Of a stretch of DNA of 32,000 nt, positions 6,744-23,772 are shown piece by piece. The notes below the pieces were generated by a model. It was given only the letters and a program-made list of their open reading frames with translations. It was not told where the DNA came from and did not search any database. The position numbers were made by a program, and so were the translations under genes. Position 1 is the first letter of the stretch. Each line of letters starts with the position of its first letter. Source of the stretch: Kiritimatiella glycovorans (lineage in GTDB: Bacteria; Verrucomicrobiota; Kiritimatiellia; Kiritimatiellales; Kiritimatiellaceae); assembly GCF_001017655.1 (NCBI RefSeq), contig NZ_CP010904.1:1380001-1412000 (forward strand), in the 5' to 3' direction.

Positions 6744-7256
6744 TCACACCCTCCCCTTTCCCCTCAGCGCCTCCGGACCGGTGGCGGAGGCGAGGTGGCA
6801 CCAGGCGATCGCGAGGGCGTCGGCGGCGTCGGAGGGGAGTTTTTCCTGGATCCCCGTGAGCCGGCGAATCATGAGTTCGATCTGTTCCTTGCGCGCGCTG
6901 CCGTTGCCGACGACGGCCTCCTTGACACGCCGGGGTGCGTATTCGAAGACCTCGACGTCGCGCTGCGCGCATGTGGTGAGTACCGCGCCCCGGGCCTCTC
7001 CCAGGATGAGCGACGTGCGCGCATTGCGGCAGAAGAAAACCCCTTCGATCGCCGTCTCCAGGGGCAGGTATTCGTCCAGGCACGCCCCGATCCCGGAGGC
7101 CAGGTGCGCCAAGCAGCGGGTGCGGCTGCAATCGCGGCGGTTGCGGATCACGCCCCAGGTCAAGGCGCGGGCACGGCTGCGCGTGCCCTCCAGTACTCCG
7201 TATCCCGTCGACCGGAGCGAGGTGTCCACGCCCAGCACTCTGACGGCGTCACGCAT
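6744..7256 (-). CDS. ruvC: Crossover junction endodeoxyribonuclease RuvC
   Basis: VLGVDTSLRSTGYGVL...IEGVFF..N..TSLILGEARGA...YAPRRVKEAVVGNGSARKEQI...DAADALAIAWCH carries the RuvC catalytic D/E/D/D architecture. ATG at 7254-7256. Confidence 0.9.
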   Translation of the reverse strand: MRDAVRVLGVDTSLRSTGYGVLEGTRSRARALTWGVIRNRRDCSRTRCLAHLASGIGACLDEYLPLETAIEGVFFCRNARTSLILGEARGAVLTTCAQRDVEVFEYAPRRVKEAVVGNGSARKEQIELMIRRLTGIQEKLPSDAADALAIAWCHLASATGPEALRGKGRV

Positions 7257-8010: not shown

Positions 8011-8173
8011 AGTGGAGATCCTCTCGCTGAATGGAATACCCGCAAACGGTACAAATGCGCTAACTCCGTGTCACGAACAATTGAGCGCTTCCGCCCGCGC
8101 CTCATCTTCATTGACCCCCGAACCCCGTGCGGCTAGCGTATACCGTTTTCCCGGCAAAGGGGATGCTGCACTG

Positions 8174-9109
8174 ATGAATGGGTTAAGGCAACGAACTGAA
8201 TACCTGGGGGTCCGGGCGACCCTGAACCTCGTGGCCCTGATGCCGGAACCGCTCACGCGCGTGCTGTTCAGGGGTCTCGCGCTGGGCTACTTTCTGGTCG
8301 GCCGACGCCGGCGCCGGCTGACGCTGACGAACCTGCGCGCCGCCCTTCCCGAGCTTCCCGCCCGCCGGAGGCTGCGGCTGGCGCTGGGCACATATCTTCA
8401 CGTCAGCGAAGTGGCGCTGCACAGCGCGCGGATGCTCTGCCGCCTCTGGACGGAGGCGGAGCTTGACGCGCAGGTGGACGACGACGCGGCGCAGCGGCTG
8501 CTCGCGCTCGAAGCGGAGCATGAAAAGGGGCTGATGATTGTCAGCGCGCATCTCGGCGACTGGGAGTTCATGGGCCGTTGCCTTGCGCGTACTCTGCGGC
8601 GCCCGAAGCATCTCGTCGCGCGCAGGAGCGATAACCGTCTGATCGAGGAAGACGTCGTGCGCCGTTTGCGCGGGGTATTCAACACCGGCATCATCTATAA
8701 GAAAGGCGCCGGGACGGCCATGGTCCGGGCCCTGCTCCGCGGCGAGCATGTCGGCATCCTGATCGACCAGAAACTCAGCCGCAAACAGGGCGGCATCGAG
8801 ACCGATTTTTTCGGCCGCCCGGCCCTGGCGGTCAGCGCGCCGGCGGCGCTCGCCCTCCGGTACGACATTCCCGTCGTCCCGGTCTTCCTCTTCCGTACCG
8901 GCCGCAACCGCTACAGGCTCGAGGTCGACGGTCCGGTCGACCCGCCCGCCGAAGGACAACCCGAACGCGAACGCATCGCCGATTTGACACAACGCCTGCA
9001 AAAGATTATCGAAGAGAAGGTTAGAGAGCATCCCGAACAGTGGTTCTGGATGCATGACCGCTGGCGGCCGTCGAAGAAAACAAAGAGGGCGCAAGAGAAT
9101 GTCGGATGA
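8174..9109 (+). CDS. LpxL/HtrB-family lipid A late (lauroyl/myristoyl) acyltransferase
   Basis: A bacterial lipid A biosynthesis acyltransferase pattern is present. It has an N-terminal hydrophobic anchor, the catalytic SAHLGDWE motif (HX4E), ILIDQK, and EHPEQWFWMHDRWR at the C-terminus. The ATG at 8174 was chosen. The track ORF from 7814 is an antisense extension over yebC. Confidence 0.85.
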   Translation: MNGLRQRTEYLGVRATLNLVALMPEPLTRVLFRGLALGYFLVGRRRRRLTLTNLRAALPELPARRRLRLALGTYLHVSEVALHSARMLCRLWTEAELDAQVDDDAAQRLLALEAEHEKGLMIVSAHLGDWEFMGRCLARTLRRPKHLVARRSDNRLIEEDVVRRLRGVFNTGIIYKKGAGTAMVRALLRGEHVGILIDQKLSRKQGGIETDFFGRPALAVSAPAALALRYDIPVVPVFLFRTGRNRYRLEVDGPVDPPAEGQPERERIADLTQRLQKIIEEKVREHPEQWFWMHDRWRPSKKTKRAQENVG

Positions 9110-10186: not shown

Positions 10187-11287
10187 ATGCATGTGGTCCA
10201 ACTCGTACCCGAACTCAACCAGGGCGGTGTCGAACGCGGGGTGGTCGAATTCAGCCGCGAACTGGTCAAACTCGGCCACCGCTCCACGGTACTGTCGGCG
10301 GGGGGGCGGCTGGTCACGCAACTCAACGCCGAGGGCGGCGAACACTACCCGGCCCCGGTCTGCAGCAAAAACCCGCTCACGGCACCCTGGCGTGTACAAA
10401 CCCTCCGCCGCCTATTCCGAAGTCTCGACCCCGACATCCTGCACGCCCGCAGCCGCGTGCCCGCCTGGCTGACGTATTGGGCCAACAAGCCCCTGGGGAT
10501 TCCGTGGGTGACCACGGTGCACGGGTTCAACAGCATCAGCGCCTACAGCCGGATCATGACGCGCGGCGACCGCGTGATCTGCGTCAGCCATCCGGTTCGC
10601 GAGCACATACTCCAACACTACGATGTATCCGAAGACCGCATCTCCGTGGTGCACCGCGGGGTTGATCCCCGCGTGTTCGACCCCGCCGCAATCGACCGGG
10701 AGTGGATCGACGCGTGGCTGGAGGAGCACGGCATACGAAATCGGCCGATCCTCAGCATGGTGGGACGCATTTCCGAACGCAAGGGATGCGGGACGCTGAT
10801 CCGGGCGATGAACCGGCTGCGCGACGCCCATCCTCAACTGCGTGCGCTGATTGTCGGGGACGCCCATCCCTCGAACCACGCCTGCCTCAGAACACTGCAG
10901 GCCCGGGTGCGCGAACTGGGGCTCGTGGAACGCGTCATCTTTACCGGCGGGATCGATCGGGTCCCCGAGGTCTACGCCCTCAGCCGGGCGGTACTCTCAT
11001 GCTCCCTGAAGCCGGAGAGCTTCGGTCGTTCGCTCACCGAGGCGCTGGCCATGAATACGCCTGTGATCGCTCCCCGGCACGGCGGCGCGCTCGACATTGT
11101 CCGGGACGGGGTGCAGGGATATCTCTTCGAGCCGGACGACGACGAGCAGCTCGCGGCGGCCATCGTCCGGGTGCTCGAACGGGAGTGGACGGGGCTGCGC
11201 GACCATGTGCTGCGCAACTTCACGCTCGACCGGATGACCGCGCAGGTGCTGGAGGTCTACGATTCGCTGACGGCGACGACCCGGTAG
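10187..11287 (+). CDS. GT4-family glycosyltransferase (RfaG/WaaG-like)
   Basis: The N-terminus is MHVVQLVPELNQGGVERGVVEFSRELVKLGH. The C-terminal GT-B half carries the EX7E motif ESFGRSLTE followed by ALAMNTPVIA. ATG verified at 10187. Confidence 0.85.
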   Translation: MHVVQLVPELNQGGVERGVVEFSRELVKLGHRSTVLSAGGRLVTQLNAEGGEHYPAPVCSKNPLTAPWRVQTLRRLFRSLDPDILHARSRVPAWLTYWANKPLGIPWVTTVHGFNSISAYSRIMTRGDRVICVSHPVREHILQHYDVSEDRISVVHRGVDPRVFDPAAIDREWIDAWLEEHGIRNRPILSMVGRISERKGCGTLIRAMNRLRDAHPQLRALIVGDAHPSNHACLRTLQARVRELGLVERVIFTGGIDRVPEVYALSRAVLSCSLKPESFGRSLTEALAMNTPVIAPRHGGALDIVRDGVQGYLFEPDDDEQLAAAIVRVLEREWTGLRDHVLRNFTLDRMTAQVLEVYDSLTATTR

Positions 11288-12303
11288 AGCGCTTCGATCT
11301 GCGGGATCACGGCTTCTTCACAGTACCTGCGGCGGTACCATTCGAGCGCGCATTGCGCCCGGCGCACGGCGTCTCCGGGGTTCTCCAGCGCGGTACGCAT
11401 CGCTTCGAGAAGCGAATCCGCCGAATCGACAGAGGCGAAAAAGGCCGAATCGTCCGCAAGCACCTCGGACGGGCCGCGCGTCTTCGTAGTCACAATCGGT
11501 ATTCCGCGCGCCATGGCCTCGAGCATGACGATCCCGAACGGTTCGTCGCGCGAGGGCAGCACGAAGAGATCGGCTTGATCGAGCGCGGATGAGACATCGT
11601 CGATCCAGACGCCGAGGCGCACACGGTCCGAGACTCCGAGTTTCCGCGCGAGGGAGGAAAGCGCGTCCTGTTCAGGTCCCCCGCCACCGAGGGTAAGCTG
11701 CAGGTCCCTGCCCTCCTCCACCAGCGCCGCAAACGCACGGAGAAGCAGGTCGAATCCCTTTTTCGGCACGTAGCGGCCGTAGGAGAGCAGCCGGCGCGCG
11801 GTCCGCGCTTCCCGGACGCGGGCCTCTTCCACGGCGGGAACCCGCGAAAAATTGGGAATGAGCCGCAGCCGATCCTCCGGCCAGTCGTGCTCGCGCGCGT
11901 AGTCGACCTGGTGCCGGGTGGTTCCGATCAGCACATCGACGTCGCGGTAACAGGAGAGATCCGCGTAATTGTGAAGTTTGGCCACCACGGGGACGCCGGC
12001 CCCCGCTGCGGCCCTGCCCCCCAGCTTCGCCGCCCGGCGCAGCTGCGTGTGTACCGCCGAGGGCCGGAAGGCCTTAAGTTTTGCGCGGATGCGGCGCACC
12101 GCCAGCCGGTCCCAGTCTCCGAGTACGCGAACCGGGGCGACGCGCACTCCACGGATGCCTTCCAGCTTTTCTTTCCCCTTGAACGCCGGATGGCAGACGG
12201 CCTGCACCTCGTGCCCGCGCGCCGACATCGCCAGCGCGGTATCCACGAAAGACCGTTCCGCACCGCCGAATCCTTTACTCAACATGATGTGCGTCATGCG
12301 CAT
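11257..12303 (-). CDS. GT4-family glycosyltransferase
   Basis: The N-terminus is IMLSKGFGGAERSFVDTALAMSARGHEV. The EX7E motif is EPFGIVMLE, followed by AMARGIPIV. ATG at 12301-12303. The 3' end overlaps the convergent GT4 gene by 31 nt. Confidence 0.85.
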   Translation of the reverse strand: MRMTHIMLSKGFGGAERSFVDTALAMSARGHEVQAVCHPAFKGKEKLEGIRGVRVAPVRVLGDWDRLAVRRIRAKLKAFRPSAVHTQLRRAAKLGGRAAAGAGVPVVAKLHNYADLSCYRDVDVLIGTTRHQVDYAREHDWPEDRLRLIPNFSRVPAVEEARVREARTARRLLSYGRYVPKKGFDLLLRAFAALVEEGRDLQLTLGGGGPEQDALSSLARKLGVSDRVRLGVWIDDVSSALDQADLFVLPSRDEPFGIVMLEAMARGIPIVTTKTRGPSEVLADDSAFFASVDSADSLLEAMRTALENPGDAVRRAQCALEWYRRRYCEEAVIPQIEALYRVVAVSES

Positions 12304-12518
12304 GATCGAACCCTACGCTCCAGTGGCGCGGCGCTCAACTGCGAAGGATCGTTTCAACGCTCAAACTCTCACCCTCCCGCCTTTTCTTTACGCACGGGGT
12401 CAGATAGGATTTCGTCACAAGGTCTCCGGAACACATGGAAGGCGGGAAGCAGGAGGTAGGTCGTGATCGGTGTCGAGCCCGAGGTCAGTATTCAGCCCCT
12501 GTCGTCCCGATCGTAATC

Positions 12519-13541
12519 ATGCGCATCGTACACGTCGACAATCTGCAGATCCGCCGCTACGGGCGCGCGAAGGTTTCGACCGGCCGCAAGCTGATGTACG
12601 GCATGGTCCGCAACAACTACAAGGTCTGTGAGTTCAGCGAACGCGACATCGCGCGCTTCGAAGCGCCGCTGAAGATCAAACCGCTCGGCGTGCGTATCGC
12701 CAACCGCCGCCTGATCGAGACCTGCGACAACTTCCATCCCGACCTGGTGCTCATGGGGCACTGCGATCTGATCGAAAACGGTACGCTTCGGGAGATCCGG
12801 CGCCTGCTGCCCTCCGTCAGGATCGCCTACCGGAACGTCGATCCGCCCTGGGAGGAGCGGAACATCGAACGTGTGCGGCGAAGGATGGAGGCGGCGGATG
12901 CGATTTTCATGACGACGGGCGGGGATTTTCTGCGGCAGTTCTGCACCGGAAAGAACAGGGTCGCCTGGATGCCGAACCCCTGCGACCCCGCCGTAGAGGA
13001 TCAGAATAATGCGGAGAAGACCGCCTTTGATCGGGATCTGGTGTTCTGCGGCGTGGGCCAGCCGACGGATGAGCGCTATCCTTTCATCGAACAACTTCAT
13101 GATGAACTCAAAGGCCGGCTGAAATTCGAGAGCTTCGGCATGCACGGCCACCCCGCCGTATGGGGACGCGACTACGACGACGTCATTGCGGGCAGCCGGA
13201 TGGGACTGAATCTCGACCGGTTTCGCGGCCACGAACTCTATTCCTCCGCCCGCATCTCGCAATTGATGGGCAACGGTCTGCTTACCGTCCTGTGGGAGCG
13301 CACGGATCTGAAGCGCTTCATCGACGACGGGATGGCGCTTTACTTTCGCGACATGGACGACCTCGTCGCGAAGCTGAACCACTATCGAAAACATGATGAA
13401 GAGCGCCGCGCCGTCGCCGCCCGCGGACGCGATTTCTATCAGCGCGCCTTCTCCGGCCGGGCCGTCAGCCGGTTTATGGTTGAAACCACGCTCACCGGCG
13501 AGGCAGGCGACGCGCCCTGGGCCGATCAGATCTACCCATGA
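12519..13541 (+). CDS. CgeB-like glycosyltransferase (DUF3880 + Glyco_trans_1_2-type C-terminal domain)
   Basis: The C-terminal block GLNLDRF....LYSSARISQLMGNGLLTV...FIDDGMALYFRDMDDLVAKLNHYRKHDEERRAVAARGRDFYQRAFS follows the Glyco_trans_1_2 pattern. ATG at 12519 (MRIVHVDN) was chosen over the track start at 12435. Confidence 0.7.
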   Translation: MRIVHVDNLQIRRYGRAKVSTGRKLMYGMVRNNYKVCEFSERDIARFEAPLKIKPLGVRIANRRLIETCDNFHPDLVLMGHCDLIENGTLREIRRLLPSVRIAYRNVDPPWEERNIERVRRRMEAADAIFMTTGGDFLRQFCTGKNRVAWMPNPCDPAVEDQNNAEKTAFDRDLVFCGVGQPTDERYPFIEQLHDELKGRLKFESFGMHGHPAVWGRDYDDVIAGSRMGLNLDRFRGHELYSSARISQLMGNGLLTVLWERTDLKRFIDDGMALYFRDMDDLVAKLNHYRKHDEERRAVAARGRDFYQRAFSGRAVSRFMVETTLTGEAGDAPWADQIYP

Positions 13542-13556
13542 ACGGAGCTGCAACGG

Positions 13557-14471
13557 ATGAAGACCCTTCTCCACGTCGGATACCCCAAGTGCGCCAGCAC
13601 CTACCTGCAGAAGATCGTGTTCCCGAAGGCGGGCGCGTACTCGAACATCGCCTTTGCTCCGGCAGATGAAAAAGGAGAACCCCTCAGGCGCGATTTCGAT
13701 CCGGACCGTTTTCGAAGCCTCGTACACCGGCATCGCGTCGACGATCTCAGCGAACCCGAACGGCTGGTGGTTTCCTGCGAAGACTGGTGCGATCATCTGA
13801 CCGCGCCGTTTGTGGACAATTTCTTCGCCTACAACGGACTCGACCGCGCCCGCTTCGAGTTTTCCAACCAGCGCATCGCGAATAACCTCAAGACCGCTTT
13901 TCCGGACGCCTCCGTGATCGTCGTGCTGCGTGATCCGATCGAGTGGTGCCGCTCGCGCTACAAGTCGCTGTTCCGCGGCGGGCGGGTGGATGCTCCGTTC
14001 GAACGATACCTTCATCCGCTGACCGAGACCTACGACACCGCCGTCGAACGCTGGCGGTCGCTGTTCGGCGCGGAGCGCGTCCTCGTGATTCCGTACGAGC
14101 TCATCCGGGCCGACCGACAGGCTTTCGTCGACCGCATCACGGAGTTCATCCGTCCGGGACTGCGGGTGGACGCCCCGGATCGACGGGTCAACGCCGCCCC
14201 CGACCTGGCCCGCGAGGTCTTTTTTGAGCGCAAAACCAAACGCCTGCGACGCGCGCTCCGCAGCCGCCGGATGGGGTGGCTCTACGCTCCGGCCCGGGCC
14301 GCGCTGACCGTCGCCGCCAGACCTGCCCTGCGCCGCACCTGGGGCGACGCGCCCTTCGAGGTTCCCTTCGATCCGGCCAGGGTGCCGGAGACGATGAAGG
14401 CCTTCGCCGAGGCCGACCGGAAAGTGGAACGGATGACGGGGCTGGATCTCAAGGCGCTCGGGTATCCCTGA
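13557..14471 (+). CDS. Predicted PAPS-dependent sulfotransferase, atypical family A (paralogue 1 of 4)
   Basis: A 5'-PSB-like loop HVGYPKCASTYLQ sits at residues 6-18. A 3'-PB-like strand-helix VIVVLRDPIEWCRSRY is present. It shares SCEDW, RVLVIPYE and the C-terminal TGLDLKALGY with the three minus-strand paralogues. Confidence 0.75.
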   Translation: MKTLLHVGYPKCASTYLQKIVFPKAGAYSNIAFAPADEKGEPLRRDFDPDRFRSLVHRHRVDDLSEPERLVVSCEDWCDHLTAPFVDNFFAYNGLDRARFEFSNQRIANNLKTAFPDASVIVVLRDPIEWCRSRYKSLFRGGRVDAPFERYLHPLTETYDTAVERWRSLFGAERVLVIPYELIRADRQAFVDRITEFIRPGLRVDAPDRRVNAAPDLAREVFFERKTKRLRRALRSRRMGWLYAPARAALTVAARPALRRTWGDAPFEVPFDPARVPETMKAFAEADRKVERMTGLDLKALGYP

Positions 14472-14597
14472 GGGGAGCGGGAGACGGGAGAGCGTGTGAG
14501 TGAGAAACCAAATGCCTGAGCAGGATGCAGGGGTTATCTACGAAGAGTTCCATACAGCTATTTTCCAAGACCACGAACACCCCCGGGAACCCGTGAC

Positions 14598-15404
14598 ATG
14601 GGCCTGACGAGCAAATTCATGAGGACGGAAAAGCCGGTGCGGAGTGCACGGGAGTACCTCCGCAATCGGAGCCGGGGGCTCCGATGTGACCGGCCGCCGG
14701 TATTTATCGTGGGCTGCGGACACAGCGGCACCTCGCTGATGCTGCGCATCGTCGACATGCACTCCTCGATTTACGGCGTTCCTTTTGAGAGCCGCGTGCT
14801 CTTGCGGTCACGATTTAAAATCCGGATGGCGGAGGCGCTCTGGCGCAAAAACGCCGTCGCCGCCGCCAAGCGCCGCTGGGCGGAAAAAACGCCCGCGCAT
14901 GTCTACTGCATCGACCGAATCTTCCGAATATGGCCGCAAGCCCGGGTGATCCTCATGCGGCGCGACGGGCGCGACGTGGCGGTATCGCTGCGTGAGCGGT
15001 GGGGGGACTTCGACCGCGCGGTCCATCGCTGGATCGAAGATAATCGCGCGGGCGATGCGTGGTGCGGCGACCCGCGTGTGTTTGAGCTCCGGTACGAGGA
15101 TCTCGTCCGGGACTTCGAGCCGCGGATGCGGGAGGTGATGACCTTCCTGGGAGAGCGGTTCGAAGAAGGACTGGCAGACTTTCACACCCAGACGACGGTT
15201 TACGGGGGAGAGTCCGCGGGGATCCGGAAACAACCCGACCTGCCCCCGAACCGCGCCCTCCGGAAAGCGCAGCTCAGGAACCCCCTTTACGACGGATCGG
15301 GACGCTGGCGCGACGAGATGAGTGCAGACGAGAAGTGCCGGTTCAAAGAACGGGCCGGCGATCTGCTGATCGACCTGGGGTACGCCGGGGATCTCAACTG
15401 GTGA
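14598..15404 (+). CDS. Sulfotransferase (Sulfotransfer_3-like, P-loop type)
   Basis: The 5'-PSB motif is FIVGCGHSGTSLMLRIV, the 3'-PB motif is VILMRRDGRDVAVSL, and LRYEDLVRDFEPRMREVMTFLG is typical of bacterial sulfotransferases. ATG at 14598; an alternative ATG lies at 14619. Confidence 0.8.
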   Translation: MGLTSKFMRTEKPVRSAREYLRNRSRGLRCDRPPVFIVGCGHSGTSLMLRIVDMHSSIYGVPFESRVLLRSRFKIRMAEALWRKNAVAAAKRRWAEKTPAHVYCIDRIFRIWPQARVILMRRDGRDVAVSLRERWGDFDRAVHRWIEDNRAGDAWCGDPRVFELRYEDLVRDFEPRMREVMTFLGERFEEGLADFHTQTTVYGGESAGIRKQPDLPPNRALRKAQLRNPLYDGSGRWRDEMSADEKCRFKERAGDLLIDLGYAGDLNW

Positions 15405-15414
15405 AGCCTATGCT

Positions 15415-16371
15415 TCAACCCCCGTATCCCAGGGCCGCGAAGTCGATATCCGTCATCTCAGAAAGACGGCGGCTGCATGCCTCCAGCACGGGGCGGAGTT
15501 CCTTGCGCGAGGACTCGGGGACCACGACCCGGTCGCGCCGGTTTCCGTACTGCAGCGCGTAGCGCGCACGGTGCACCGTCTTGACCCAGAAGCGCGCCGC
15601 TTCATAGCGCGCCTTTTCCGCCAGGGTGGCGCGCGCGCCCGTGGGACGCAGGGTCTGTTTCAGGTGCGCCTTATCGCGCATCACCGCCACCTCCCGGCGG
15701 TAGAGCGCGCCCTGATTGCTGGGCGTGTGCGGGGCGCGGACCGTCGCGCCCGGGGCAATCAGTTTTGCCGCCGCCTCGGCGAAACGCTGCGGATCCTCAA
15801 GGATCCACTCGAAAGGCACCACCCGCACACGATCCGCGCCGAAGGCCTCGCGGAAACGGGCCACGGTGCCGTCGTATCCCTCCAGTTCCGGGACGAGCAA
15901 CTCTTCGATCGGCGCGGACGTCTGATGGTGCCTGTAGTGCATGCGGTACTTCGAGATCGCCCAGGCGAGCGGTTCGCGGACGACGATCAGTACTTTGGCT
16001 CCCGGCCAGGTGCGCGCGAGATTCTCCACGATGCGCGCATTCCGGGGCTCATACGGAGTGGGATCGAGTCCGTTCAGCTCCGCGGCCCGGAGGAGCAGGT
16101 CTTCGATCCCGCGAAACCAGAGCTCCACCCAGTCCTCGCAGGAAACAATATGGCGCCGGCCGGGTTCCGGTCCGGGCACACGGCAGGCCCCGGCGCGTTC
16201 GCGAAGCACCTCCGGGTCCATGTCCGCCAGGAAGGGCAGCATTTTCGTTTCGCGCGATTCCGGCGCGAGATTCGACTGATCGCCGAGCTGCGGAAAGATA
16301 CACTGCTGCAGGTAGGTGCTCGCGCTTTTGGGATAGCCCACATGAAGGATCACTTCTTCGCCGCCGCTCAT
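15415..16371 (-). CDS. Predicted sulfotransferase, atypical family A (paralogue 2)
   Basis: Shared family motifs are present: HVGYPKSASTYLQ, VSCEDW, VLIVVREPLAWAISKY, RVRVVPFE, and the C-terminal TDIDFAALGY. The ATG at 16371 overlaps the upstream stop (ATGA), with GGAGGAGG upstream. Confidence 0.75.
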   Translation of the reverse strand: MSGGEEVILHVGYPKSASTYLQQCIFPQLGDQSNLAPESRETKMLPFLADMDPEVLRERAGACRVPGPEPGRRHIVSCEDWVELWFRGIEDLLLRAAELNGLDPTPYEPRNARIVENLARTWPGAKVLIVVREPLAWAISKYRMHYRHHQTSAPIEELLVPELEGYDGTVARFREAFGADRVRVVPFEWILEDPQRFAEAAAKLIAPGATVRAPHTPSNQGALYRREVAVMRDKAHLKQTLRPTGARATLAEKARYEAARFWVKTVHRARYALQYGNRRDRVVVPESSRKELRPVLEACSRRLSEMTDIDFAALGYGG

Positions 16372-17369
16372 GGCCTCCTCCCCTCCCGCCGCGGCCCGGT
16401 CCGGTAGCCGTACCGCTCCAGATCCAGACCGGTGCGCTCGCAGAGCCTGCGCAGACCGGGGGCGAACGCATCCCGTATCCGCGCCGCGCAGGCCTCATCC
16501 ACTTCGATATCGAAAGGCTGATCCCCATACCGCAGAAAGTTCTTGAAGCGGACCTGCGTGGAGACCTTCCAGCGGGCGAGACGGTGCCTCAGCCGGGCCC
16601 GCAGGCTGCGGCACTTGCACGGCTCCCACTCCGCCTTGACCCTCGCCTTCTCCCGTCCCGTCTCGACGGTTCGCCGCAGCGGCGGGGCGGCATTTAATTT
16701 CCTCTGCGGCGCGGCGAGCTCGATGCCGGGGGCGATGAACGAGGTCACCTGATCGACGAAAGCGGAGGCGTCCTCCCGCAGCAGCTCGAACGGGATCACA
16801 CGAACCTGCGGGGGGCCGAAAAGTTCTCTGTAGCGCTGCTCCATCCCATCGTAATCCTCCAGCGGTTCGCGCGTGAATTCCGCGAAGGTCGAAGAGGTCT
16901 GTCCCGCCCGGTAGTGCATCTTGTAGCGCGAAAGGGCCCACTGCACCGGTTCCCGTATCACGATGAGGATCCGGGCGCCGGGGTGTTCCGCTTTAAGGCG
17001 CGCCGCGATATCCGCATTGTCCCGCAGACATCGATCCGGATCGACTCCGTGCCGGCGAAGATTGCGGGCGAAATGGTCCTCGAATCCCCGGAACAGGAAT
17101 TGCACGAAGGCCTCGCACGATATGATGGAGTGCGGTCGATCGCTCCGCACGCAGGTCCGCCGGTTTTCGATGAGGCGGCGATAGCGCTGCGGGTTCATAT
17201 CGCTCATCAGTAGATAGCATTTTTCATCCCACGGCGCGGCGGACAGGTTCGTAACGTTGCCGAGTTCCGGAAAGATGAGCTGCTGGAGATAGGTACTCGC
17301 GCATTTCGGGTACCCGATATGGAGCACCGGAGGATGGGCCTCGGTGATATGGGACGATTCCGTGTTCAT
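16368..17369 (-). CDS. Predicted sulfotransferase, atypical family A (paralogue 3)
   Basis: Shared family motifs are present: HIGYPKCASTYLQ, ISCEAF, ILIVIREPVQWALSRY, VRVIPFE, TGLDLERYGY. The ATG at 17369 (MNTESS...) was chosen because it forms an ATGA overlap with the upstream stop and has GGAGGG upstream. The 148-codon N-terminal extension in the track overlaps the neighbouring gene in another frame. Confidence 0.75.
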   Translation of the reverse strand: MNTESSHITEAHPPVLHIGYPKCASTYLQQLIFPELGNVTNLSAAPWDEKCYLLMSDMNPQRYRRLIENRRTCVRSDRPHSIISCEAFVQFLFRGFEDHFARNLRRHGVDPDRCLRDNADIAARLKAEHPGARILIVIREPVQWALSRYKMHYRAGQTSSTFAEFTREPLEDYDGMEQRYRELFGPPQVRVIPFELLREDASAFVDQVTSFIAPGIELAAPQRKLNAAPPLRRTVETGREKARVKAEWEPCKCRSLRARLRHRLARWKVSTQVRFKNFLRYGDQPFDIEVDEACAARIRDAFAPGLRRLCERTGLDLERYGYRTGPRREGRRP

Positions 17370-18325
17370 ACCCCCCTGCCCTCCACGGGATAACCCCAGC
17401 GGGCGAGATCGATGCCCGTCTCCTGCTGCAGTCTCGAGCAGGACGCCGCGAGTCCCGGCCGCAGCCGCCGTACCGCTTCCGGCGACACGGCACTGCGGTA
17501 AATCTTGTTCCCGTAGCGGAGCCGGAAGAACGGACGGGTGCAGGGAAGCAGTGCGCGAGCCACACGCCGCAGCGGTCTCCCCGAGCCTTGATGTCCGCCG
17601 CGGTGCTTGAGACGGTAGCCCGCCCGGCGGTATTCCACTTCCGCGCGGCTCGAGGGGGCGGCATTCATCGGCAGGGAAGGCACCTCCGGCCTCAGGTCCG
17701 GGTCCGCGAACGACACCGCTTCGCGCACGAATCCCTCGGGGTCGGCGCGCAGCCTCTCGTAAGGGATCACGCGCACATGCTCGCGCCCGAACCACCCGGC
17801 GTAAAGCCGCCACACCTCATCGTATCCTCCGCCCGGTTCATCCAGACAGGAATCCAGCGGCTCGTCGACCAGATCCCGTCGATACCAGTGATCGTAACGC
17901 GAAACGGCCCAGTCCAGCGGGTTTCTTATCACGATCAGAATGAAGGCGTCCGGCCACGTGCGTGCCAGGTTGCGGGCGATGACTTCGTTACGGTGATCGT
18001 AAGGAGCGGGATCAATGCCCCGGCGCAACGCCACGCGTCCGAAGTTGCGCTCGAACCCGCGGAAGGGAAGTTCGACGTAACTCTCGCAGGACAGGATCCG
18101 GAACGGGATCGTGTCGTCCCGCCTGCGCATATGACGCGCCACCATGATCCGGTATGCCTCAGGTGTCATCCCGCGGTGGTACAGCAGCGCCTTGTCTTCA
18201 TAGGGCGCGTCCGAGAGATCCGCAAAATTGGGGAGCTGGGGAAAGATGAGGCGCTGCAGGTACGTGCTGGCACATTTCGGGTAGCCGATGTGCACCACGG
18301 TGCGGGTGGGCTCCTCCTGCTTCAT
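17366..18325 (-). CDS. Predicted sulfotransferase, atypical family A (paralogue 4)
   Basis: Shared family motifs are present: HIGYPKCASTYLQ, LSCESY, ILIVIRNPLDWAVSRY, VRVIPYE, TGIDLARWGY. The ATG at 18325 (MKQEEP...) forms an ATGA overlap with the upstream stop, with GGGAGG upstream. Confidence 0.75.
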   Translation of the reverse strand: MKQEEPTRTVVHIGYPKCASTYLQRLIFPQLPNFADLSDAPYEDKALLYHRGMTPEAYRIMVARHMRRRDDTIPFRILSCESYVELPFRGFERNFGRVALRRGIDPAPYDHRNEVIARNLARTWPDAFILIVIRNPLDWAVSRYDHWYRRDLVDEPLDSCLDEPGGGYDEVWRLYAGWFGREHVRVIPYERLRADPEGFVREAVSFADPDLRPEVPSLPMNAAPSSRAEVEYRRAGYRLKHRGGHQGSGRPLRRVARALLPCTRPFFRLRYGNKIYRSAVSPEAVRRLRPGLAASCSRLQQETGIDLARWGYPVEGRGV

Positions 18326-19287
18326 CGGCACCGCACCTCCCGGACGCCGCTGCCATCCGCCAGCTCCATCGTGTTCCGCTCGATCTCGTCCATCCCGGGG
18401 CGCCACAGCGGCGCGGCAATATAGCGCACGGGGACCCTGAAGGGGTTCCAGTAGTATTCATACTTGGCGCGGTTAAAGCCCGCGCCGCTCCAGACCACGT
18501 GCGGAAGCCTGCAGAGCGCGGCGAGGTGGATCGGACCGGAACTCGGGCCTGCGAGGACACGACTGCTGCGCATGAGATTAAACAGTTGATCGAGCGGGAT
18601 TCCGCGGTAATCGTCGCATCCTTCGACCGCGAGCGCTGCGGCGGACGTGCCGACGCATGCGACCGTAAGGCCTTTCGAGCGCAAACGGCCTGCAAACCGG
18701 GCCCAGCCCTCCGCATCCCAGCCGTTCCGGTCGCCGCTGTGGTTCTTCTTCGTGGAACGCGCGTGGAGAAGCACGTCGAAGGCAAGTCCCGGATCCTGCC
18801 GACCGTAGGCCACGAACGTCTGGTCCAGAAAAAGCCGTGAGCTCAAATAGGGCCGGCGCTGATTGTAGCCGATGATTGATTGCCCCGTGATGTGCCTCGT
18901 GTATTCGCGGCCGACCGCCACCGCGTCCGCTCCGCTGGACCCGTCTTCACACCGGTACCCCGAGATCCCTTCCCCGCCCGGGCGATACGCCACGAACTCT
19001 CCGCAGAAATCACGGTAGAGGGGCTCCATCTCCGGACGAGAAGCCACGATGACCTGATCGTACCTGCGGGCCTCCCGGCGAAGCATCCCCTGCCAGCAGA
19101 AGAGTTCCCATCCGAATTCGCCGATCCAGGGGCCCGCCAGCAGGATCTTTTCGCCGTGGACCGTATGGCCTTTCCTGATCTCGAGCCGCGGGCGGCGGCG
19201 ACGCAGATTCCGCACCCAGCGAAAGGGGCGCCCCGGTGATCCGTGCGATTTCCGGGCCCCGGGGCCGGGTGGTGCGGAGGAACTCAT
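18322..19287 (-). CDS. Divergent GT9-like (heptosyltransferase-fold) glycosyltransferase
   Basis: The C-terminal motif VLAGPSSGPIHLAALCRLPHVVW resembles the GT9 G.DSGP.HLAAA.G.P motif. The N-terminus ILLAGPWIGEFGWELFCWQG sits in place of the GT9 ..SALGD.. loop. The ATG at 19287 forms an ATGA overlap with the upstream stop and has GGAGG upstream. Confidence 0.55.
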   Translation of the reverse strand: MSSSAPPGPGARKSHGSPGRPFRWVRNLRRRRPRLEIRKGHTVHGEKILLAGPWIGEFGWELFCWQGMLRREARRYDQVIVASRPEMEPLYRDFCGEFVAYRPGGEGISGYRCEDGSSGADAVAVGREYTRHITGQSIIGYNQRRPYLSSRLFLDQTFVAYGRQDPGLAFDVLLHARSTKKNHSGDRNGWDAEGWARFAGRLRSKGLTVACVGTSAAALAVEGCDDYRGIPLDQLFNLMRSSRVLAGPSSGPIHLAALCRLPHVVWSGAGFNRAKYEYYWNPFRVPVRYIAAPLWRPGMDEIERNTMELADGSGVREVRCR

Positions 19288-20114
19288 CCCGGCACCTCCA
19301 TGTGCAATCCGTACCCGGCGTCCCAGTCCAGCAGTTCCCGGCAGACCGCGTTCCACCACTTCCGATCCTGCTCCGTGAACCACTCCATGGGGTCGCGTCG
19401 ATCATTCCGAATCACCTGTTCCCGGTTGCGCGGTCTGCTTCGCTCCGCCATCTCCGATTTGGTGGAGCGATGCACGGCGGCGCTTACGACCTCTTCGCCG
19501 GCCGGAATACCGAAGTATTCGCAGGCGGCCTTCAACGCCGCCTCCGGGTCCCGCTTCATGTTTTCATATTTAAGAGTCATCGTCGTGAAAAACGGATCGC
19601 ACACGACGCGGCCCCACCCGTTCAGAAACTCGAGCTGACGCCATATATCATTGAAATAGAGCTTGTCGCGCACATCACCGCGCAGGAAGCTGGAAAAATC
19701 CACGCCGTAGCGCGCCTTCCATTTTTCGTAGTGCGACACCAGCGCGTGCTGCGGGTCGCGGACCAGGATCAAATATCTCGGAAATTCAAGCCGGTCCCGG
19801 ACGGGGCGCATAAACATGAGACCGTGCGGCAGCGAATGGGAACTCACGATCCGCGGAAGGCCGGAATACTTGGGGGGCTGTTTCGGGCGCCCGATAAAAT
19901 CCATATCCTGGATGGTCTCCGGTGCGGGCTTTTCGTAGACCTCGGCCATGCAGAGGCTGAGCATGTAACGGAGCCAGTGCGTGCCCGACTGCTGCATGCT
20001 CAGGATGTGACCGTCGAATTTCCGCCGCCGCACCATCGTCGTATTGAACCAGCGATGGTTCAGGCATCGCATCCGGAACGCACGTTTTATGCCGCTGCTG
20101 AGGACGTCATTCAT
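19284..20114 (-). CDS. Sulfotransferase (Sulfotransfer_1-like)
   Basis: The 5'-PSB-like motif is ILSMQQSGTHWLRYML (compare PKSGTTW). The 3'-PB-like motif is RYLILVRDPQHALVSHY, and LKYENMKRDPEAALKAACEYFGIP is also present. The ATG at 20114 overlaps the upstream GT9 stop by 8 nt. Confidence 0.75.
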   Translation of the reverse strand: MNDVLSSGIKRAFRMRCLNHRWFNTTMVRRRKFDGHILSMQQSGTHWLRYMLSLCMAEVYEKPAPETIQDMDFIGRPKQPPKYSGLPRIVSSHSLPHGLMFMRPVRDRLEFPRYLILVRDPQHALVSHYEKWKARYGVDFSSFLRGDVRDKLYFNDIWRQLEFLNGWGRVVCDPFFTTMTLKYENMKRDPEAALKAACEYFGIPAGEEVVSAAVHRSTKSEMAERSRPRNREQVIRNDRRDPMEWFTEQDRKWWNAVCRELLDWDAGYGLHMEVPG

Positions 20115-21021
20115 AATCGCTGCCGCTTTCGTTCAGATACGGGGCAAGCCGATCGAGCGCCGCCCCGATGTCGATGTTTTCATAATACGGTCCCACTTCT
20201 TCCATGCTCCGGACCGGCGGTCTGCCGTCCGCATAATATACACGATCGTAAACGACCGTCGACCAGGGACCGAACGGCGCGCTCCGCACCCAGCTCGTCG
20301 CGCCGAAGATGCCGATCGTCGGGGTCTTCATCGCCGCCGCCAGGTGCATCGGCGCGGAGTCGGTCGAGACCACCAGGTACGCCTCCGCAAGCAGCCTTTT
20401 CAGCCCCTGCAGATCGAGCGTACCCGCCGTGCAGCTCGCCTCGACCGGAAGCGAGGCCGTAAGACGCTCCGCGTAGTCGGCCTCGTCGGGGCCGCCGCTG
20501 ACCATAAGCGGCAATCCGTAACGCTCCCGGAGCAGGACCGCGATCTGCGTCCATTTCCGGTCCGGGAGCCGTTTTGAACGCCACCGTGCGCTGGAGCCCG
20601 GATGGAGCACGATGTAATCGCGCGGTTTGGACTCGAAAGACTCGTCCAGAGGCCCGAGCAGGCCGGAGGGTTCCAGAATGCGGCGGAAATTATCGCAGGC
20701 GGGAACGCCACGGGGCATGCCCCGGTTGCTGTACACCGTCTTCGCTCCGCACAGCGCGGCTATCAGCTTCGACCGATCGTTGTTCTGGAGGTCGAGCATA
20801 ACCTCGAACCGGGCACGCCGCAATTGCATGACCAGGCCGGCGACCGACCGCAACCGTTTATCCGGGAGTACGATCGACGCCGGAAATTCATCGCGCAGGA
20901 GTTCGCGTCCGGCCGGCGACGTGACCATTGCGGGTCGCACCTTCAGCGCGCGCAGAAAAGGAAGCGCGGCGGCGATATCGCCCAGCGCACTGAACCGCAT
21001 CGCCGCCGCGCGTTCACTCAA
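20107..21021 (-). CDS. GT9-family glycosyltransferase (LPS heptosyltransferase-like)
   Basis: RFSALGDIAAALPFLRAL is the GT9 N-terminal motif, and STDSAPMHLAAAMKTPTIGIFG is the GT9 C-terminal motif. I prefer the TTG start at 21021, which is preceded by AGGAGG with a 7-nt spacer and overlaps the lpxK stop by 8 nt. The track ATG at 21054 and the ATG at 21000 are alternatives. Confidence 0.8.
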   Translation of the reverse strand: MSERAAAMRFSALGDIAAALPFLRALKVRPAMVTSPAGRELLRDEFPASIVLPDKRLRSVAGLVMQLRRARFEVMLDLQNNDRSKLIAALCGAKTVYSNRGMPRGVPACDNFRRILEPSGLLGPLDESFESKPRDYIVLHPGSSARWRSKRLPDRKWTQIAVLLRERYGLPLMVSGGPDEADYAERLTASLPVEASCTAGTLDLQGLKRLLAEAYLVVSTDSAPMHLAAAMKTPTIGIFGATSWVRSAPFGPWSTVVYDRVYYADGRPPVRSMEEVGPYYENIDIGAALDRLAPYLNESGSDYE

Positions 21022-22171
21022 AACAGATCCTCCTGATCCAGTCGCGAAACGCATCGTCGCCGCTCAGCATCTCGATCTCGACGCGCAGAAACAGGATCGG
21101 GACGTCGCGCCGCTCGAGAAACGGCATCCGTACCGCATCCTTCTCCGTGGTCAGGATCGCCTCGGCCCCGGCGGCGATACTGCGGTTGACGAATTCGATG
21201 ACCTCCTGCTGCGAGTAGCGGTGGTGGTCGGCGCGACGTCCGGTATGGACGAGCTCCGCCCCGAGCCGGCTCAGTTCCGACTCGAAACTCTCGGGTACGG
21301 CAATCGCGGACAGGGCCGCGACCCGGCGGCCCCGCAGCCACTCCAGCCCGTAGCGCTCCTGCCGGAAGACGTCCTGCACGTACTTGGAGCGGTGACAGCA
21401 CTCGGAGATTTCGGCGTGCGGGTTGAGTTCCCGCAGCTTCCGCCGGAGTTCGGGCGCGCCGCCGGGACCGCACTTGGTGATGAAGATGAAACCCGCCCGC
21501 TTGATGTTCCGCATCGGCTCGCGCAGCAGGCCGCGGGGCAGCATGCGCTCGTACCCGAACGGCTGCCGGGCGTCCACCAGCACGATGTCCAGCCGATGCC
21601 GCAGCGAGAGATACTGAAAGCCGTCGTCGAGAATCAGGGTGTCGCAGCCCTGCCTGCGGATCGCATACTTTCCGGACTTCACGCGGTCCTTGTCGACCAG
21701 CACGGTGACCTCCGGCAGATTCGAGGCGAGCATGTACGGCTCGTCGCCGCTCATCGCCGAATCGAGCAGGAGACGCCGCCCGTCGGACACCACACGGGGC
21801 GGCGAGCCCTCGCGGAGGTTGAGCTTCTGCGCCAGGCGGTCGTGGACGGGCGGTTTGACGCTGCGGTAGCCGCGGCTGAGGATGGCCACCCTGCGCCCCG
21901 CCTGCTCCAGGGCGCGGGCGAATACCTCCACCACCGGCGTCTTTCCGGTGCCGCCGACGGTCATGTTGCCGATGCTGATCACCTGGCATCCGAGATCGTT
22001 CGGGCGGATGAGTCCGGCGCGGTACAGCGCGAGACGCAGCTGGACCGCGCCGCCGTAGAGCCAGGACAGCGCGCGCAGCGCACCCCTCCCCGCCGCGGCG
22101 CGGCGTCCGGTGATCCGCCCCTCGATCAGGCCGAGTACGTATTCTTCCAGTTTTTCCTGCCAGCGCTGCAT
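21014..22171 (-). CDS. lpxK: Tetraacyldisaccharide 4'-kinase (lipid A biosynthesis)
   Basis: [20 protein letters not shown]...[19 protein letters not shown]...ILSRGY shows the LpxK P-loop architecture. The C-terminus has DHH.Y.......[13 protein letters not shown] at 22169-22171. Confidence 0.9.
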
Positions 22172-22225
22172 TAAAATCTACCCGCCCGAAAACGATCTTG
22201 CCTGGAACCGTTGCTCCCGATAAGC

Positions 22226-22831
22226 ATGCCGGTCGTGTGCGACCCGTCTACATCTTTGCGCATCCATCCCGGGAACTGGCTCGGACCGCTGGAGCTGGAT
22301 CGGCACTTTGCCAATCCCGGCCGCCCGCTCGACCTCGACCTCGGCTGCGGTAAGGGCCGGTTTCTCGTCGCCCGCGCCGCCGCACACCCGGAAACCCGCT
22401 TTCTCGGCCTCGACCGCATGCTCGAACGCATCCGCAAGGTCGACCGGAAGCTCGTGCGCCGCCAACTCCACAACGTCCGGCTGCTTCGGGTCGAAGGGTA
22501 CTACGCCGTCACCTACCTGCTGCCCGCGGCGTCCGTACGCACCTGCTTCTGCCTCTTCCCCGATCCCTGGCCGAAAAAAAGACACCATCATCACCGACTG
22601 TTCAGCCCCCCGTTCGTCGACGCCCTCCACCGCACCCTCCAGCCCGGCGGCGTGCTGCACCTCGCCACGGATCACCAGCCCTACTTCGAAGAGATCTATG
22701 CCCTTCTCTCCTCGGATCCGCGTTTCGCGCCGGAGCCGGTTTTCATTCCGCGGCCCGCGGAGCGCACCGACTTCGAACTGCTCTACCTCGGCCGCAAGCC
22801 GATCGGACGCTGCTCCTTCCGTAAACGCTGA
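22226..22831 (+). CDS. trmB: tRNA (guanine46-N7)-methyltransferase
   Basis: LDLGCGKGRF is the SAM motif I. FPDPWPKKRHHHHRL is the TrmB signature and HLATDHQPYFEE is also present. The ATG at 22226 is preferred to the track's TTG at 22211. Confidence 0.9.
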   Translation: MPVVCDPSTSLRIHPGNWLGPLELDRHFANPGRPLDLDLGCGKGRFLVARAAAHPETRFLGLDRMLERIRKVDRKLVRRQLHNVRLLRVEGYYAVTYLLPAASVRTCFCLFPDPWPKKRHHHHRLFSPPFVDALHRTLQPGGVLHLATDHQPYFEEIYALLSSDPRFAPEPVFIPRPAERTDFELLYLGRKPIGRCSFRKR

Positions 22832-22866
22832 CCCGCCCGGCTGCACCCTCCTATCCTTTGCGCTGC

Positions 22867-23052
22867 CTAAAACATCTTCAGCAGCTCGGCAGCCGTTTCG
22901 CGCACAAAAGCGTCCACCCTCTCGAACCCGAACGCCGACAGGGATATCAGATAGGCCGCTTCGGCGATCAGAACCAGTAGAACCAGCGCCCATACGAAGC
23001 GCGAAAACATGCTGCTGCGGATCTTCATCGGAGCGACCTTACCGCAAAACAT
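22867..23052 (-). CDS. Hypothetical small single-pass membrane protein
   Basis: This is a 61-aa ORF (ATG 23052; an internal ATG would give MKIRSS...). It has one hydrophobic helix, FVWALVLLVLIAEAAYLISLSAF, and third-codon positions are mostly G/C, like the real genes here. I recognise no homology. Confidence 0.35.
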   Translation of the reverse strand: MFCGKVAPMKIRSSMFSRFVWALVLLVLIAEAAYLISLSAFGFERVDAFVRETAAELLKMF

Positions 23053-23184
23053 GAGTGCGGGCCAAAGTGTTCACGGGGAAAATATCCGTTTTGATTCGAT
23101 CCCCGCGCTTGAACAGGGTATGAATCCCCATGAAGGGGCTTCAGTACACTTCCGGAACGCAACCGCAAGGAAAGGGATACGAAC

Positions 23185-23772
23185 ATGATACCGACTCTGA
23201 TCGTCCTCGCCGTGATCATCCTGCTGGCGATCTTCGCCGCCGGCATCTACAACAAACTCGTCCAGCTGCGCAACAGGTTCAGGAACGCCTTCGCGCAGAT
23301 AGACGTACAGCTCAAGCGCCGCTACGACCTGATCCCGAACCTGGTGGAAACGGCGAAGGGGTACATGGAGCACGAACGTGAAACGCTGGAGGCGGTCACG
23401 CAGGCGCGCAACCAGGCCGCGGCCGCCAACCAGCAGGCGGCGGCCCATCCCGGCGATCCGAACGCCATGCAGAACCTGACGGGCGCCGAAAACACCCTCG
23501 GCGGCGCGCTCGGGCGTCTGCTGATGACGGTGGAGAGCTATCCCGACCTCAAGGCCAACCAGAACATGTCGCAGCTGATGGAAGAGCTGACGACGACGGA
23601 AAACAAGGTGGCCTTTGCGCGCCAGGCGTACAACGACGCCGTGATGACCTACAACACCGCACGCGAGACCTTTCCCAACGTACTGGTTTCCGGCCCGCTC
23701 GGATTCGGCAAGGCGGAACTCTTCGAGATCGAGAACGAGCAGGAGCGCGAGGCGCCTGAAGTCAAGTTCTGA
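23185..23772 (+). CDS. lemA: LemA-family membrane protein
   Basis: An N-terminal TM helix is followed by YNKLVQLRNRFRNAFAQIDVQLKRRYDLIPNLVETAKGYMEHERETLEAVTQAR and SYPDLKANQNMSQLMEELTTTENKVAFARQAYNDAV. This is a canonical LemA pattern. Confidence 0.9.
   Translation: MIPTLIVLAVIILLAIFAAGIYNKLVQLRNRFRNAFAQIDVQLKRRYDLIPNLVETAKGYMEHERETLEAVTQARNQAAAANQQAAAHPGDPNAMQNLTGAENTLGGALGRLLMTVESYPDLKANQNMSQLMEELTTTENKVAFARQAYNDAVMTYNTARETFPNVLVSGPLGFGKAELFEIENEQEREAPEVKF

Follow-up and report, generated by a model that had tools for sequence, protein, structure and literature searches.

We analysed 32,000 nucleotides of the Kiritimatiella glycovorans genome (contig NZ_CP010904.1, positions 1,380,001 to 1,412,000, forward strand), a stretch referred to below as the window, to whose numbering all coordinates refer. 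Near its centre lie four paralogous sulfotransferase genes, here termed S1 to S4. S1 is encoded on the plus strand (13557-14471, 304 aa; open reading frame (ORF) call and Sulfotransfer_3 match), while S2 (15415-16371, 318 aa, GenBank AKJ64449.1), S3 (16368-17369, 333 aa, AKJ64450.1) and S4 (17366-18325, 319 aa, AKJ64451.1) are encoded on the minus strand, with overlaps of 4 bp between the S4 stop and the S3 start and between the S3 stop and the S2 start. The translations of S2, S3 and S4 were exact matches to K. glycovorans GenBank proteins (CP010904), and S1 was 100% identical to an entry named 'sulfotransferase [K. glycovorans]' (P0002); the public record (GenBank CP010904) already gives all four the name 'sulfotransferase'. 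An initial annotation, made from the DNA letters and their translations, had described four collinear paralogues here, and all four ORFs were indeed present, at 304-333 aa, and could be aligned from end to end, with 57 invariant columns in a MAFFT alignment. Identity to S1 was 34-40% in this alignment, and pairwise identities among S1-S4 were 34-39% in a separate one, so that the moderate similarity guessed by eye held good while the guessed range of 35-50% was slightly high. Pairwise BLASTP comparisons gave E values of 1e-53 to 1e-65 across about 310 residues, far beyond chance. At the DNA level, matches were confined to short stretches, indicating that the duplications are old and that there has been no recent gene conversion.

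The conserved blocks that had been listed for the family were all found, with small deviations in S1, S3 and S4. The loop assigned to 5'-phosphosulfate binding (PSB) reads H-x-G-Y-P-K-[CS]-A-S-T in all four paralogues. In S1 it lies at 13572-13601 (HVGYPKCAST), followed on the plus strand by the SCE motif (13773-13781), the 3'-phosphate-binding (3'-PB) motif RDPIEWCRS (13929-13955), a basic hairpin (14208-14354) and the tail TGLDLKALGY (14436-14465). The same elements follow one another on the minus strand in S2 (PSB 16315-16344, here PKSAST; SCE 16135-16143; 3'-PB 15952-15978; hairpin 15535-15699; tail 15424-15453), in S3 (PSB 17292-17321; SCE 17112-17120; 3'-PB 16929-16955; hairpin 16515-16676; tail 16404-16433) and in S4 (PSB 18263-18292; SCE 18083-18091; 3'-PB 17900-17926; hairpin 17501-17647; tail 17390-17419). 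As to the deviations, S1 carries VIVVLRDPIEWCRSRY (VIVVLR...WCRS) at the 3'-PB block, S3 and S4 carry [QH]VRVIP[FY]E in place of the RV.V pattern, and the S4 tail ends in ...ARWGY.

All four proteins passed the gathering cutoff (27 bits) of the Pfam family Sulfotransfer_3 (PF13469), with 48.8 bits for S1, 37.3 for S2, 36.8 for S3 and 34.2 for S4, and S1 and S4 also passed that of Sulfotransfer_1 (PF00685; 28.5 bits for S4). The label 'atypical' attached to them in the initial annotation was overstated, since they pass this cutoff and had all been named sulfotransferases already. No Stf0-type family matched S1-S4 at E<=1 in the Pfam scan, and none of the NCBIfam models matched them. For more distant comparisons we used a family profile of 55 homologues, and residue numbers below are those of S4. 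When this profile was compared with the PDB, the best match was the Alicyclobacillus acidocaldarius protein 3rnl (E 1e-24, from the 3'-PB motif to a C-terminal ...DL..W tail), followed by SULTs, NDST1 and 3-OSTs. AlphaFold2 models of S4 and S3 had a predicted local distance difference test score (pLDDT) of 93.3 and 93.5, respectively, and both were compared with the PDB using Foldseek. Each comparison listed 50 matches, covering all those with E<=1e-3, and 50 of 50 had the PAP(S)-binding sulfotransferase fold, that of 3'-phosphoadenosine 5'-phosphosulfate (PAPS)-type enzymes, one of the matches being retinol dehydratase. The best matches were 3rnl, 3-OST-1/3/5 and NDST1, with target template-modelling (TM) scores of about 0.6-0.68; for the S3 model they were 3rnl, 3-OST-5 and NDST1. 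Similarity to PAPS-dependent sulfotransferases, on which the initial annotation depended, was thus found with both profiles and predicted structures. Its preferred kinship, however, was not borne out, as Sulfotransfer_2 (PF03567) gave no match at E<=1 to any of S1-S4 in the Pfam scan, and no HS2ST- or CHST-type structure appeared in the Foldseek top 50 of either model.

We then have a closer comparison in the alignment of the 55-sequence profile with human 3-OST-1 (hhalign probability 93.6%; the sequence used was checked and is identical to PDB 1zrh). The VRVIPYE strand pairs with IHIVDGD, and the C-terminal helix together with the TG[LI]DL..GY tail pairs with ...NKKFFELVGRTFDW of 3-OST-1. As the tail is aligned in 3-OST-1 and in 3rnl too, it appears to be an ancestral element of the fold. 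Relative to 3-OST-1 the family has two insertions, one of about 35 residues after helix 1 and the other being the basic segment. In extent the family is broad, with a small core: at E<=1e-10 the profile finds about 3,159 cluster representatives, in many cases over the 3'-PB-to-tail half only, and the tight clade around S1-S4 is made up of about 10 representatives (E<1e-80) out of 1.84 billion.

Residue conservation follows the same lines. H12, G14, R134 and S142 are invariant over the homologues, and K17, S20, T21, S79, E81, Y144, E190 and Y312 are at least 90% conserved; H12, G14, K17, S20, T21, S79, E81, R134 and S142 are all kept in each of the four paralogues. K17 pairs with the PSB lysine of 3-OST-1 (GVRKGGTR) in the hhalign alignment and with YPKSGTHW of SULTs in that of HMMER, and R134-x7-S142 pairs with IRNPRDVLVS of SULTs and LRDPSERVLS of 3-OST-1. 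Judged by these alignments, K17, R134 and S142 are the canonical 5'-PSB and 3'-PB motifs. The N-terminal strand-loop-helix would then form the 5'-phosphosulfate-binding loop, with K17 as the probable catalytic lysine, and R134-x7-S142 would bind the 3'-phosphate. Known bases in related enzymes are glutamates, Glu90 in 3-OST-1 and Glu642 in NST. The hhalign alignment sets the strand that ends in S-C-E81 against the Glu90 region of 3-OST-1, with an offset of 7 residues and in a stretch of low confidence. E81 of the SCE motif is the best candidate for the catalytic base, with the invariant H12 as an alternative, and as the likely general base it would deprotonate the acceptor hydroxyl.

It might be argued that at least one of the four copies is catalytically dead, serving as a scaffold or regulator, or that the family uses a donor other than PAPS or a different chemistry. 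The PSB loop reads PK[CS]AST in place of the classic PKSGTT, the family is uncharacterised, its nearest structure, 3rnl, bears the generic name 'Sulfotransferase', and retinol dehydratase combines the same fold with another chemistry. All four copies, however, retain every residue conserved across the 55 homologues, and genes for adenosine 5'-phosphosulfate (APS) kinase or CysCDN adjoin members of the family in four related loci (described below), and we consider this explanation highly improbable. That S1-S4 are PAPS-type sulfotransferases is supported by profile matches, predicted fold and the 5'-PSB and 3'-PB residues, and we infer that all four are active in the cytoplasm as PAPS-dependent carbohydrate O-sulfotransferases, with a fold of the Sulfotransfer_3/Sulfotransfer_1 class. 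As such they are ordinary bacterial sulfotransferases that had been annotated correctly before, and what is newly added here is their gene context.

The Arg/Lys-rich segment noticed initially is real: in each paralogue it spans 49-55 residues that together carry a net charge of +11 to +12. This charge ranges from +4 to +14 across the close family and from +5 to +12 in remote relatives, while sequence identity in the segment is 29% between paralogues and 51% inside the S4 orthologue clade. The initial annotation had proposed that the segment is an in-plane amphipathic anchor to anionic lipids, which would place it outside the catalytic and acceptor site. That the charge has persisted in close and remote family members alike while the sequence diverged speaks for such an anchor, as does the expectation of membrane-bound substrates. 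A hydrophobic-moment scan, which would be expected to reveal an amphipathic helix, gave no consistent signal: S4 252-269 is a strongly amphipathic cationic helix (hydrophobic moment 0.59, charge +5), but in S1-S3 no helix of the segment was among the most amphipathic windows. Free membrane anchors are usually modelled with low confidence, whereas here the segment was modelled as a confident helix-loop-helix in both structures (S4 227-241 and 250-271; S3 232-251 and 256-281), with pLDDT mostly 84-98. It takes the place of the short 3-OST-1 loop that holds the 3'-phosphate-binding KGR, the hairpin being about 25 residues longer (hhalign), and the region also aligns to the solved bacterial sulfotransferase 3rnl. 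It contains the family-invariant R234 and R-Y-G272, the latter falling in the KGR-loop position, and the rise in identity from 29% between paralogues to 51% within the S4 clade is a pattern that suggests a specificity element. The conserved positive charge was thus upheld while the idea of an anchor was weakened, and we regard a primary anchoring role as unlikely. On the models, we instead take the segment to belong to the PAPS/acceptor site, where it would act as a lid or set specificity and present a basic surface, and not to be a detachable anchor. The hairpin would be inserted in the loop that in 3-OSTs holds KGR and lines the acceptor cleft, its end at R-Y-G272 would probably contribute to PAPS binding, and its conserved positive surface would probably dock an anionic acceptor at the membrane surface. 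The charge allows contact with an anionic substrate or membrane, and partial membrane contact of the segment would be compatible with this arrangement.

The genes around S1-S4 point to lipid A and core assembly. On the plus strand, an LpxL-like lipid A acyltransferase (7814-9109; Pfam/NCBIfam) is followed by an Elm1-like GT-B protein (PF06258; 9106-10182; Pfam) and a GT4 glycosyltransferase (GT; 10187-11287; Pfam/NCBIfam), then by a convergent GT4 gene on the minus strand (11257-12303; Pfam/NCBIfam), after which the plus strand continues with a CgeB-like GT (Glyco_trans_1_2, PF13524, 61.1 bits; 12435-13541) immediately upstream of S1, with S1 itself, and with a second type of sulfotransferase, W268 (268 aa; 14598-15404; Sulfotransfer_3, 80.2 bits), downstream of it. 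The minus-strand string begins with LpxK, the lipid A tetraacyldisaccharide 4'-kinase (21014-22171; PF02606, 266 bits; TIGR00682, 180.7 bits against a cutoff of 92), and continues with a glycosyltransferase of the GT9 heptosyltransferase family (20107-21054; PF01075, 95 bits), a third type of sulfotransferase, W276 (276 aa; 19284-20114; Sulfotransfer_1, 54.9 bits; AKJ64453.1), a weakly GT9/TibC-like putative glycosyltransferase (18322-19383) immediately upstream of S4, and then S4, S3 and S2, the last three junctions each overlapping by 4 bp. The GT9 gene showed sub-threshold likeness to the models of heptosyltransferases I, II and III, and the matches of the GT9/TibC-like ORF were weak (Glyco_transf_9 E 0.08, TIGR04414 E 0.0012, TibC in the PDB E 0.005). 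In BLASTP comparisons W268 and W276 resembled S1-S4 in the 3'-PB region only, and since they are unrelated to S1-S4, the cluster holds six sulfotransferases of three lineages. Neither transmembrane segments nor signal peptides were found in any of the six.

Some details of these genes may be added. The loop of W268 is a P-loop, GCGHSGTS, with His at the Lys/Arg position, and that of W276, ...SMQQSGTHWL, has Gln at the position of the catalytic Lys of SULT-type loops (PKSGTTW). As listed, the GT9/TibC-like ORF has 353 aa and a GTG start and runs 100 bp into the end of W276, and no protein of exactly this sequence was present in the protein collection; because a 287-aa protein in a related locus (L019, below) has a near-identical N-terminal motif, the true start is probably internal to the ORF. 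The LpxL-like protein likewise probably starts downstream of 7814, since its domain begins only at residue 128 and is preceded by a transmembrane-like stretch at about 49-75. The two convergent GT4 genes overlap by 31 bp at their 3' ends (11257-11287). Promoter and terminator scans of 12000-23500 gave counts not clearly above the shuffled expectation. Recent horizontal acquisition of the cluster was considered and set aside, there being no compositional sign of it (GC 0.643 in the cluster, 0.637 in the window).

Orthologues of each paralogue were found elsewhere. A neighbour-joining tree separated clades of S4 (bootstrap 100), S2 (bootstrap 100) and S1 (bootstrap 82). S1 has orthologues at 46-48% identity (P0010, P0013), S2 one at 52% (P0003, bootstrap 100), S3 one at 48% (L021:449-1396) and S4 seven at 51-57% (bootstrap 100). 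As each lineage has orthologues elsewhere, the duplications predate the divergence of the carrier organisms, whose GC contents run from 42% to 64%, and the earlier conclusion that they are old and have been maintained was supported. Together with the short DNA matches, these lineage-specific orthologues rule out a recent duplication or gene conversion among S1-S4. At 22 sites the S4 clade differs from the S1 clade while each is conserved internally. These sites are concentrated at 40-59, 80-99 and 140-159, a distribution which, on the alignment, fits diverged acceptor sites.

The layout recurs as well as the genes. The contig of P0007 has, in order, an LpxL-like gene, an Elm1-like gene, two GT4 genes, a GT9 gene, a CgeB-like GT and an S1-type gene, and then other sulfotransferases and an S4 orthologue. 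It also carries GmhA-, HldE- and HldD-like genes and an MsbA-like ABC transporter, the gene of which adjoins a 272-aa Sulfotransfer_1 gene; a 287-aa gene precedes P0007. The Elm1-like protein directly follows the LpxL-like acyltransferase both here and in the window. Two further loci (L019, L020) combine an APS kinase, a CgeB-like GT, a family member, an S4 orthologue, a likely GT9-like orthologue and a W268 orthologue, the GT9-like counterpart (287 aa) that adjoins the S4 orthologue in L019 having a near-identical N-terminal motif (LLAGPWIGEFGWELFCWQG; compared by eye and unscored). In L021 an S3 orthologue (48% identity) and an S2 orthologue (52%) precede one of W268, and the W268 orthologues that adjoin family members in L019 and L021 are 44-45% identical to it. 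In L001 a family member lies beside a CgeB-like GT and an APS kinase, and in L018 a fragmented S1 orthologue lies beside a CgeB-like GT. This last orthologue (L018:3906-5218, minus strand) is split in two, with one part of 144 aa that is 53% identical to S1 and one of 80 aa that is 40% identical, and is either a pseudogene or an assembly frameshift; a 196-aa ORF without any match adjoins it. The P0007 contig, L001 and L018 thus each have a CgeB-like GT with an adjacent S1-type gene, and in L019/L020 such a GT lies near a family member. The pairings of CgeB-like GT with S1-type and of GT9-like with S4-type genes are conserved, and the modular reuse of the family anticipated by the initial annotation was met with in the recurrence of the S1 and CgeB-like GT unit in four other loci.

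A remote homologue (23% identity) was found in the cultured flavobacterium Leeuwenhoekiella palythoae DSM 19859 (L008:4954-16427), between Wzx and Wzy/GT genes and directly downstream of an anion transporter, cysC, cysD and cysN. This region is a candidate sulfated-polysaccharide locus, and its position near cysC-cysD-cysN and Wzx/Wzy indicates that the wider family is consistently linked to PAPS supply and glycan assembly. In all, APS kinase or CysCDN genes adjoin homologues in four loci (L001, L019, L020 and L008).

Taking family and context together, we propose that S1-S4 are regiospecific PAPS-dependent O-sulfotransferases whose substrate is the lipid A-core oligosaccharide while it still faces the cytoplasm, before MsbA flips it, a proposal we hold with modest confidence, thinking it somewhat better founded than its negation. 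Most likely the acceptor would be this oligosaccharide as it is being built on the inner side of the cytoplasmic membrane. Each paralogue would probably sulfate a different sugar or position and be paired with a neighbouring GT (CgeB-like for S1, GT9-like for S4), and S1-S4, joined by the two unrelated sulfotransferases, would produce a multiply sulfated core of the lipopolysaccharide (LPS) or lipooligosaccharide (LOS). The gene context suggests a heavily sulfated LPS core in K. glycovorans. Both the subfunctionalisation of the paralogues and the lipid-linked acceptor of the initial annotation are plausible; the latter fits the LpxK/GT9/LpxL context and is now framed as the LPS core.

The same enzymes could instead modify an O-antigen-like chain, a capsule or an exopolysaccharide on undecaprenyl or another lipid carrier, exported by an ABC-2 or Wzx/Wzy system, the lipid A and core neighbours then reflecting a general clustering of envelope-glycan genes. 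Several observations that weigh against the lipid A-core proposal belong here. Wzm/Wzt-like genes (ABC2_membrane and ABC_tran) adjoin the module in L018, two UDP-sugar dehydrogenases and an epimerase occur in L019 and L020, and the Leeuwenhoekiella homologue lies between Wzx and GT/Wzy genes; because related loci have ABC-2, dehydrogenase and Wzx/Wzy genes, the acceptor could be an O-chain or capsule and not the core. Pontiella, of the same order (Kiritimatiellales), secretes sulfated glycosaminoglycan (GAG)-like exopolymers (PMC7356697). No sulfated LPS is reported for K. glycovorans, and its species description (Spring et al. 2016; PMC5148204) does not mention sulfotransferases. Weighing on the enzymes themselves, a profile of the N-terminal 112 residues gave 0 matches in the PDB at E<=10, and at the level of residues E81 is a candidate counterpart of a known base, offset by 7 residues from Glu90 in the low-confidence stretch noted above. 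Finally, K. glycovorans was not among the best 120 matches of the L019 APS kinase; since thousands of closer relatives of this query exist, the search is uninformative on PAPS synthesis in K. glycovorans.

The window itself gave no match to Wzx, Wzy, Wza, ABC-2 or polymerase families among the scanned ORFs of at least 200 aa, and family scans found no GAG synthase in it. S4, S3 and S2 appear translationally coupled, in a string headed by LpxK and GT9, the P0007 contig has ADP-heptose-pathway-like genes and an MsbA-like transporter, and the candidate cluster in Pontiella is a different one (PMC7356697). We thus consider an O-chain, capsule or exopolysaccharide acceptor rather unlikely, though it deserves to be taken seriously, and retain the lipid A-core oligosaccharide as the preferred acceptor.

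A bolder form of this proposal is that Kiritimatiella and the other carriers of the module build a poly-sulfated LPS/LOS core, with up to six sulfate esters added on the cytoplasmic side by three sulfotransferase lineages, each paired with a dedicated GT. We offer this tentatively, as a possibility that is more doubtful than the assignment of the acceptor. If it holds, sulfate esters would replace or supplement the core phosphates and acidic sugars that normally give negative charge and divalent-cation cross-bridging, the poly-sulfated core would represent an adaptation to hypersaline or marine habitats rich in sulfate and possibly poor in phosphate, and S1-S4 would between them place sulfates on a bacterial glycolipid in a fixed pattern of defined positions.

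Elsewhere in the window, a calcineurin-like metallophosphoesterase (5733-6668, plus strand) had a sub-threshold match to NF033458 (LpxG, UDP-2,3-diacylglucosamine diphosphatase; 63.8 bits against a cutoff of 350) and may be the LpxH/LpxI substitute of K. glycovorans. Two further genes are unrelated to the sulfotransferases, one for an HtpX-like M48 peptidase whose C-terminal region is weakly TerB-like (23775-25724, plus strand) and the other for a GH127-like protein with an N-terminal Laminin_G_3 domain (29307-31892, minus strand). The ORFs 6781-8136 (plus strand) and 22178-22993 (minus strand) are probably non-coding, since they are Arg/Ala-rich and without family matches.

Bacterial carbohydrate sulfotransferases with known acceptors are few, and the only gene linked to LPS sulfation, as far as we know, is that of LpsS in Sinorhizobium, a member of a different family. 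A recent paper points to scant knowledge of bacterial sulfotransferases whose substrates are sugar residues in polysaccharides (PMC11641403). Five or six sulfotransferases that recur as a module among lipid A and core genes predict a heavily sulfated outer-membrane glycolipid in a cultured bacterium of the PVC (Planctomycetes-Verrucomicrobia-Chlamydiae) group, and a multiply sulfated LPS core is a prediction at the level of the system that is worth testing. Four related enzymes, probably with different regiospecificities, would also be useful for studying the evolution of specificity and possibly for enzymatic glycan sulfation. If the LPS is not sulfated, the finding shrinks to four correctly annotated sulfotransferase paralogues.

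Among known systems, 3rnl, a member of the bacterial Sulfotransfer_3 group of about 300-320 aa, is the nearest to S1-S4, being the best match by sequence profile and also by fold (Foldseek E 3e-7, target TM 0.63), with the same length and C-terminal architecture. Identity to the family is, however, just 16-17%, and the N-terminal half of S1-S4 (HxGYPKCAST, the insert of about 35 residues and SCE) is undetectable by sequence in the PDB, 3rnl included. The sulfotransferase domain of NDST1 and 3-OST-1/3/5 share the fold of the S3 and S4 models (target TM 0.6-0.68), and the family aligns with 3-OST-1 at the PSB lysine, at the R-x7-S 3'-PB motif, along the RVxVIPYE-like strand and over the C-terminal helix with its tail. 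These enzymes, carbohydrate O- or N-sulfotransferases with a Glu as base, are nevertheless remote homologues (11-16% identity, HMMER E 1e-6 to 1e-5), from which S1-S4 differ in the insert after helix 1, in the longer basic hairpin in place of the KGR loop, and in a candidate Glu that is out of register with that of 3-OST-1. While 3-OSTs and NDST are Golgi-lumenal, S1-S4 are bacterial, predicted to be cytoplasmic and without a GAG-synthesis context. The PSB loops of Sulfotransfer_2 enzymes (HS2ST, CHST) are of the PKTAST type, a local likeness to PK-x-A-S-T of S1-S4 that extends to neither a profile nor a fold match.

In function the closest counterpart is LpsS of Sinorhizobium meliloti, which is said to have been identified by Cronan and Keating in 2004 as the LPS sulfotransferase of this organism and is, as far as we know, the sole genetically defined LPS sulfotransferase. 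The activity we propose for S1-S4 is the same, PAPS-dependent LPS sulfation, with the difference that the acceptor is here inferred from gene context. LpsS is annotated as a Stf0-family sulfotransferase (PMC12445080), whereas S1-S4 belong to Sulfotransfer_3 and have no Stf0-type match. In S. meliloti a single gene is involved, in contrast to the six sulfotransferases of three lineages that lie among lipid A and core genes in K. glycovorans.

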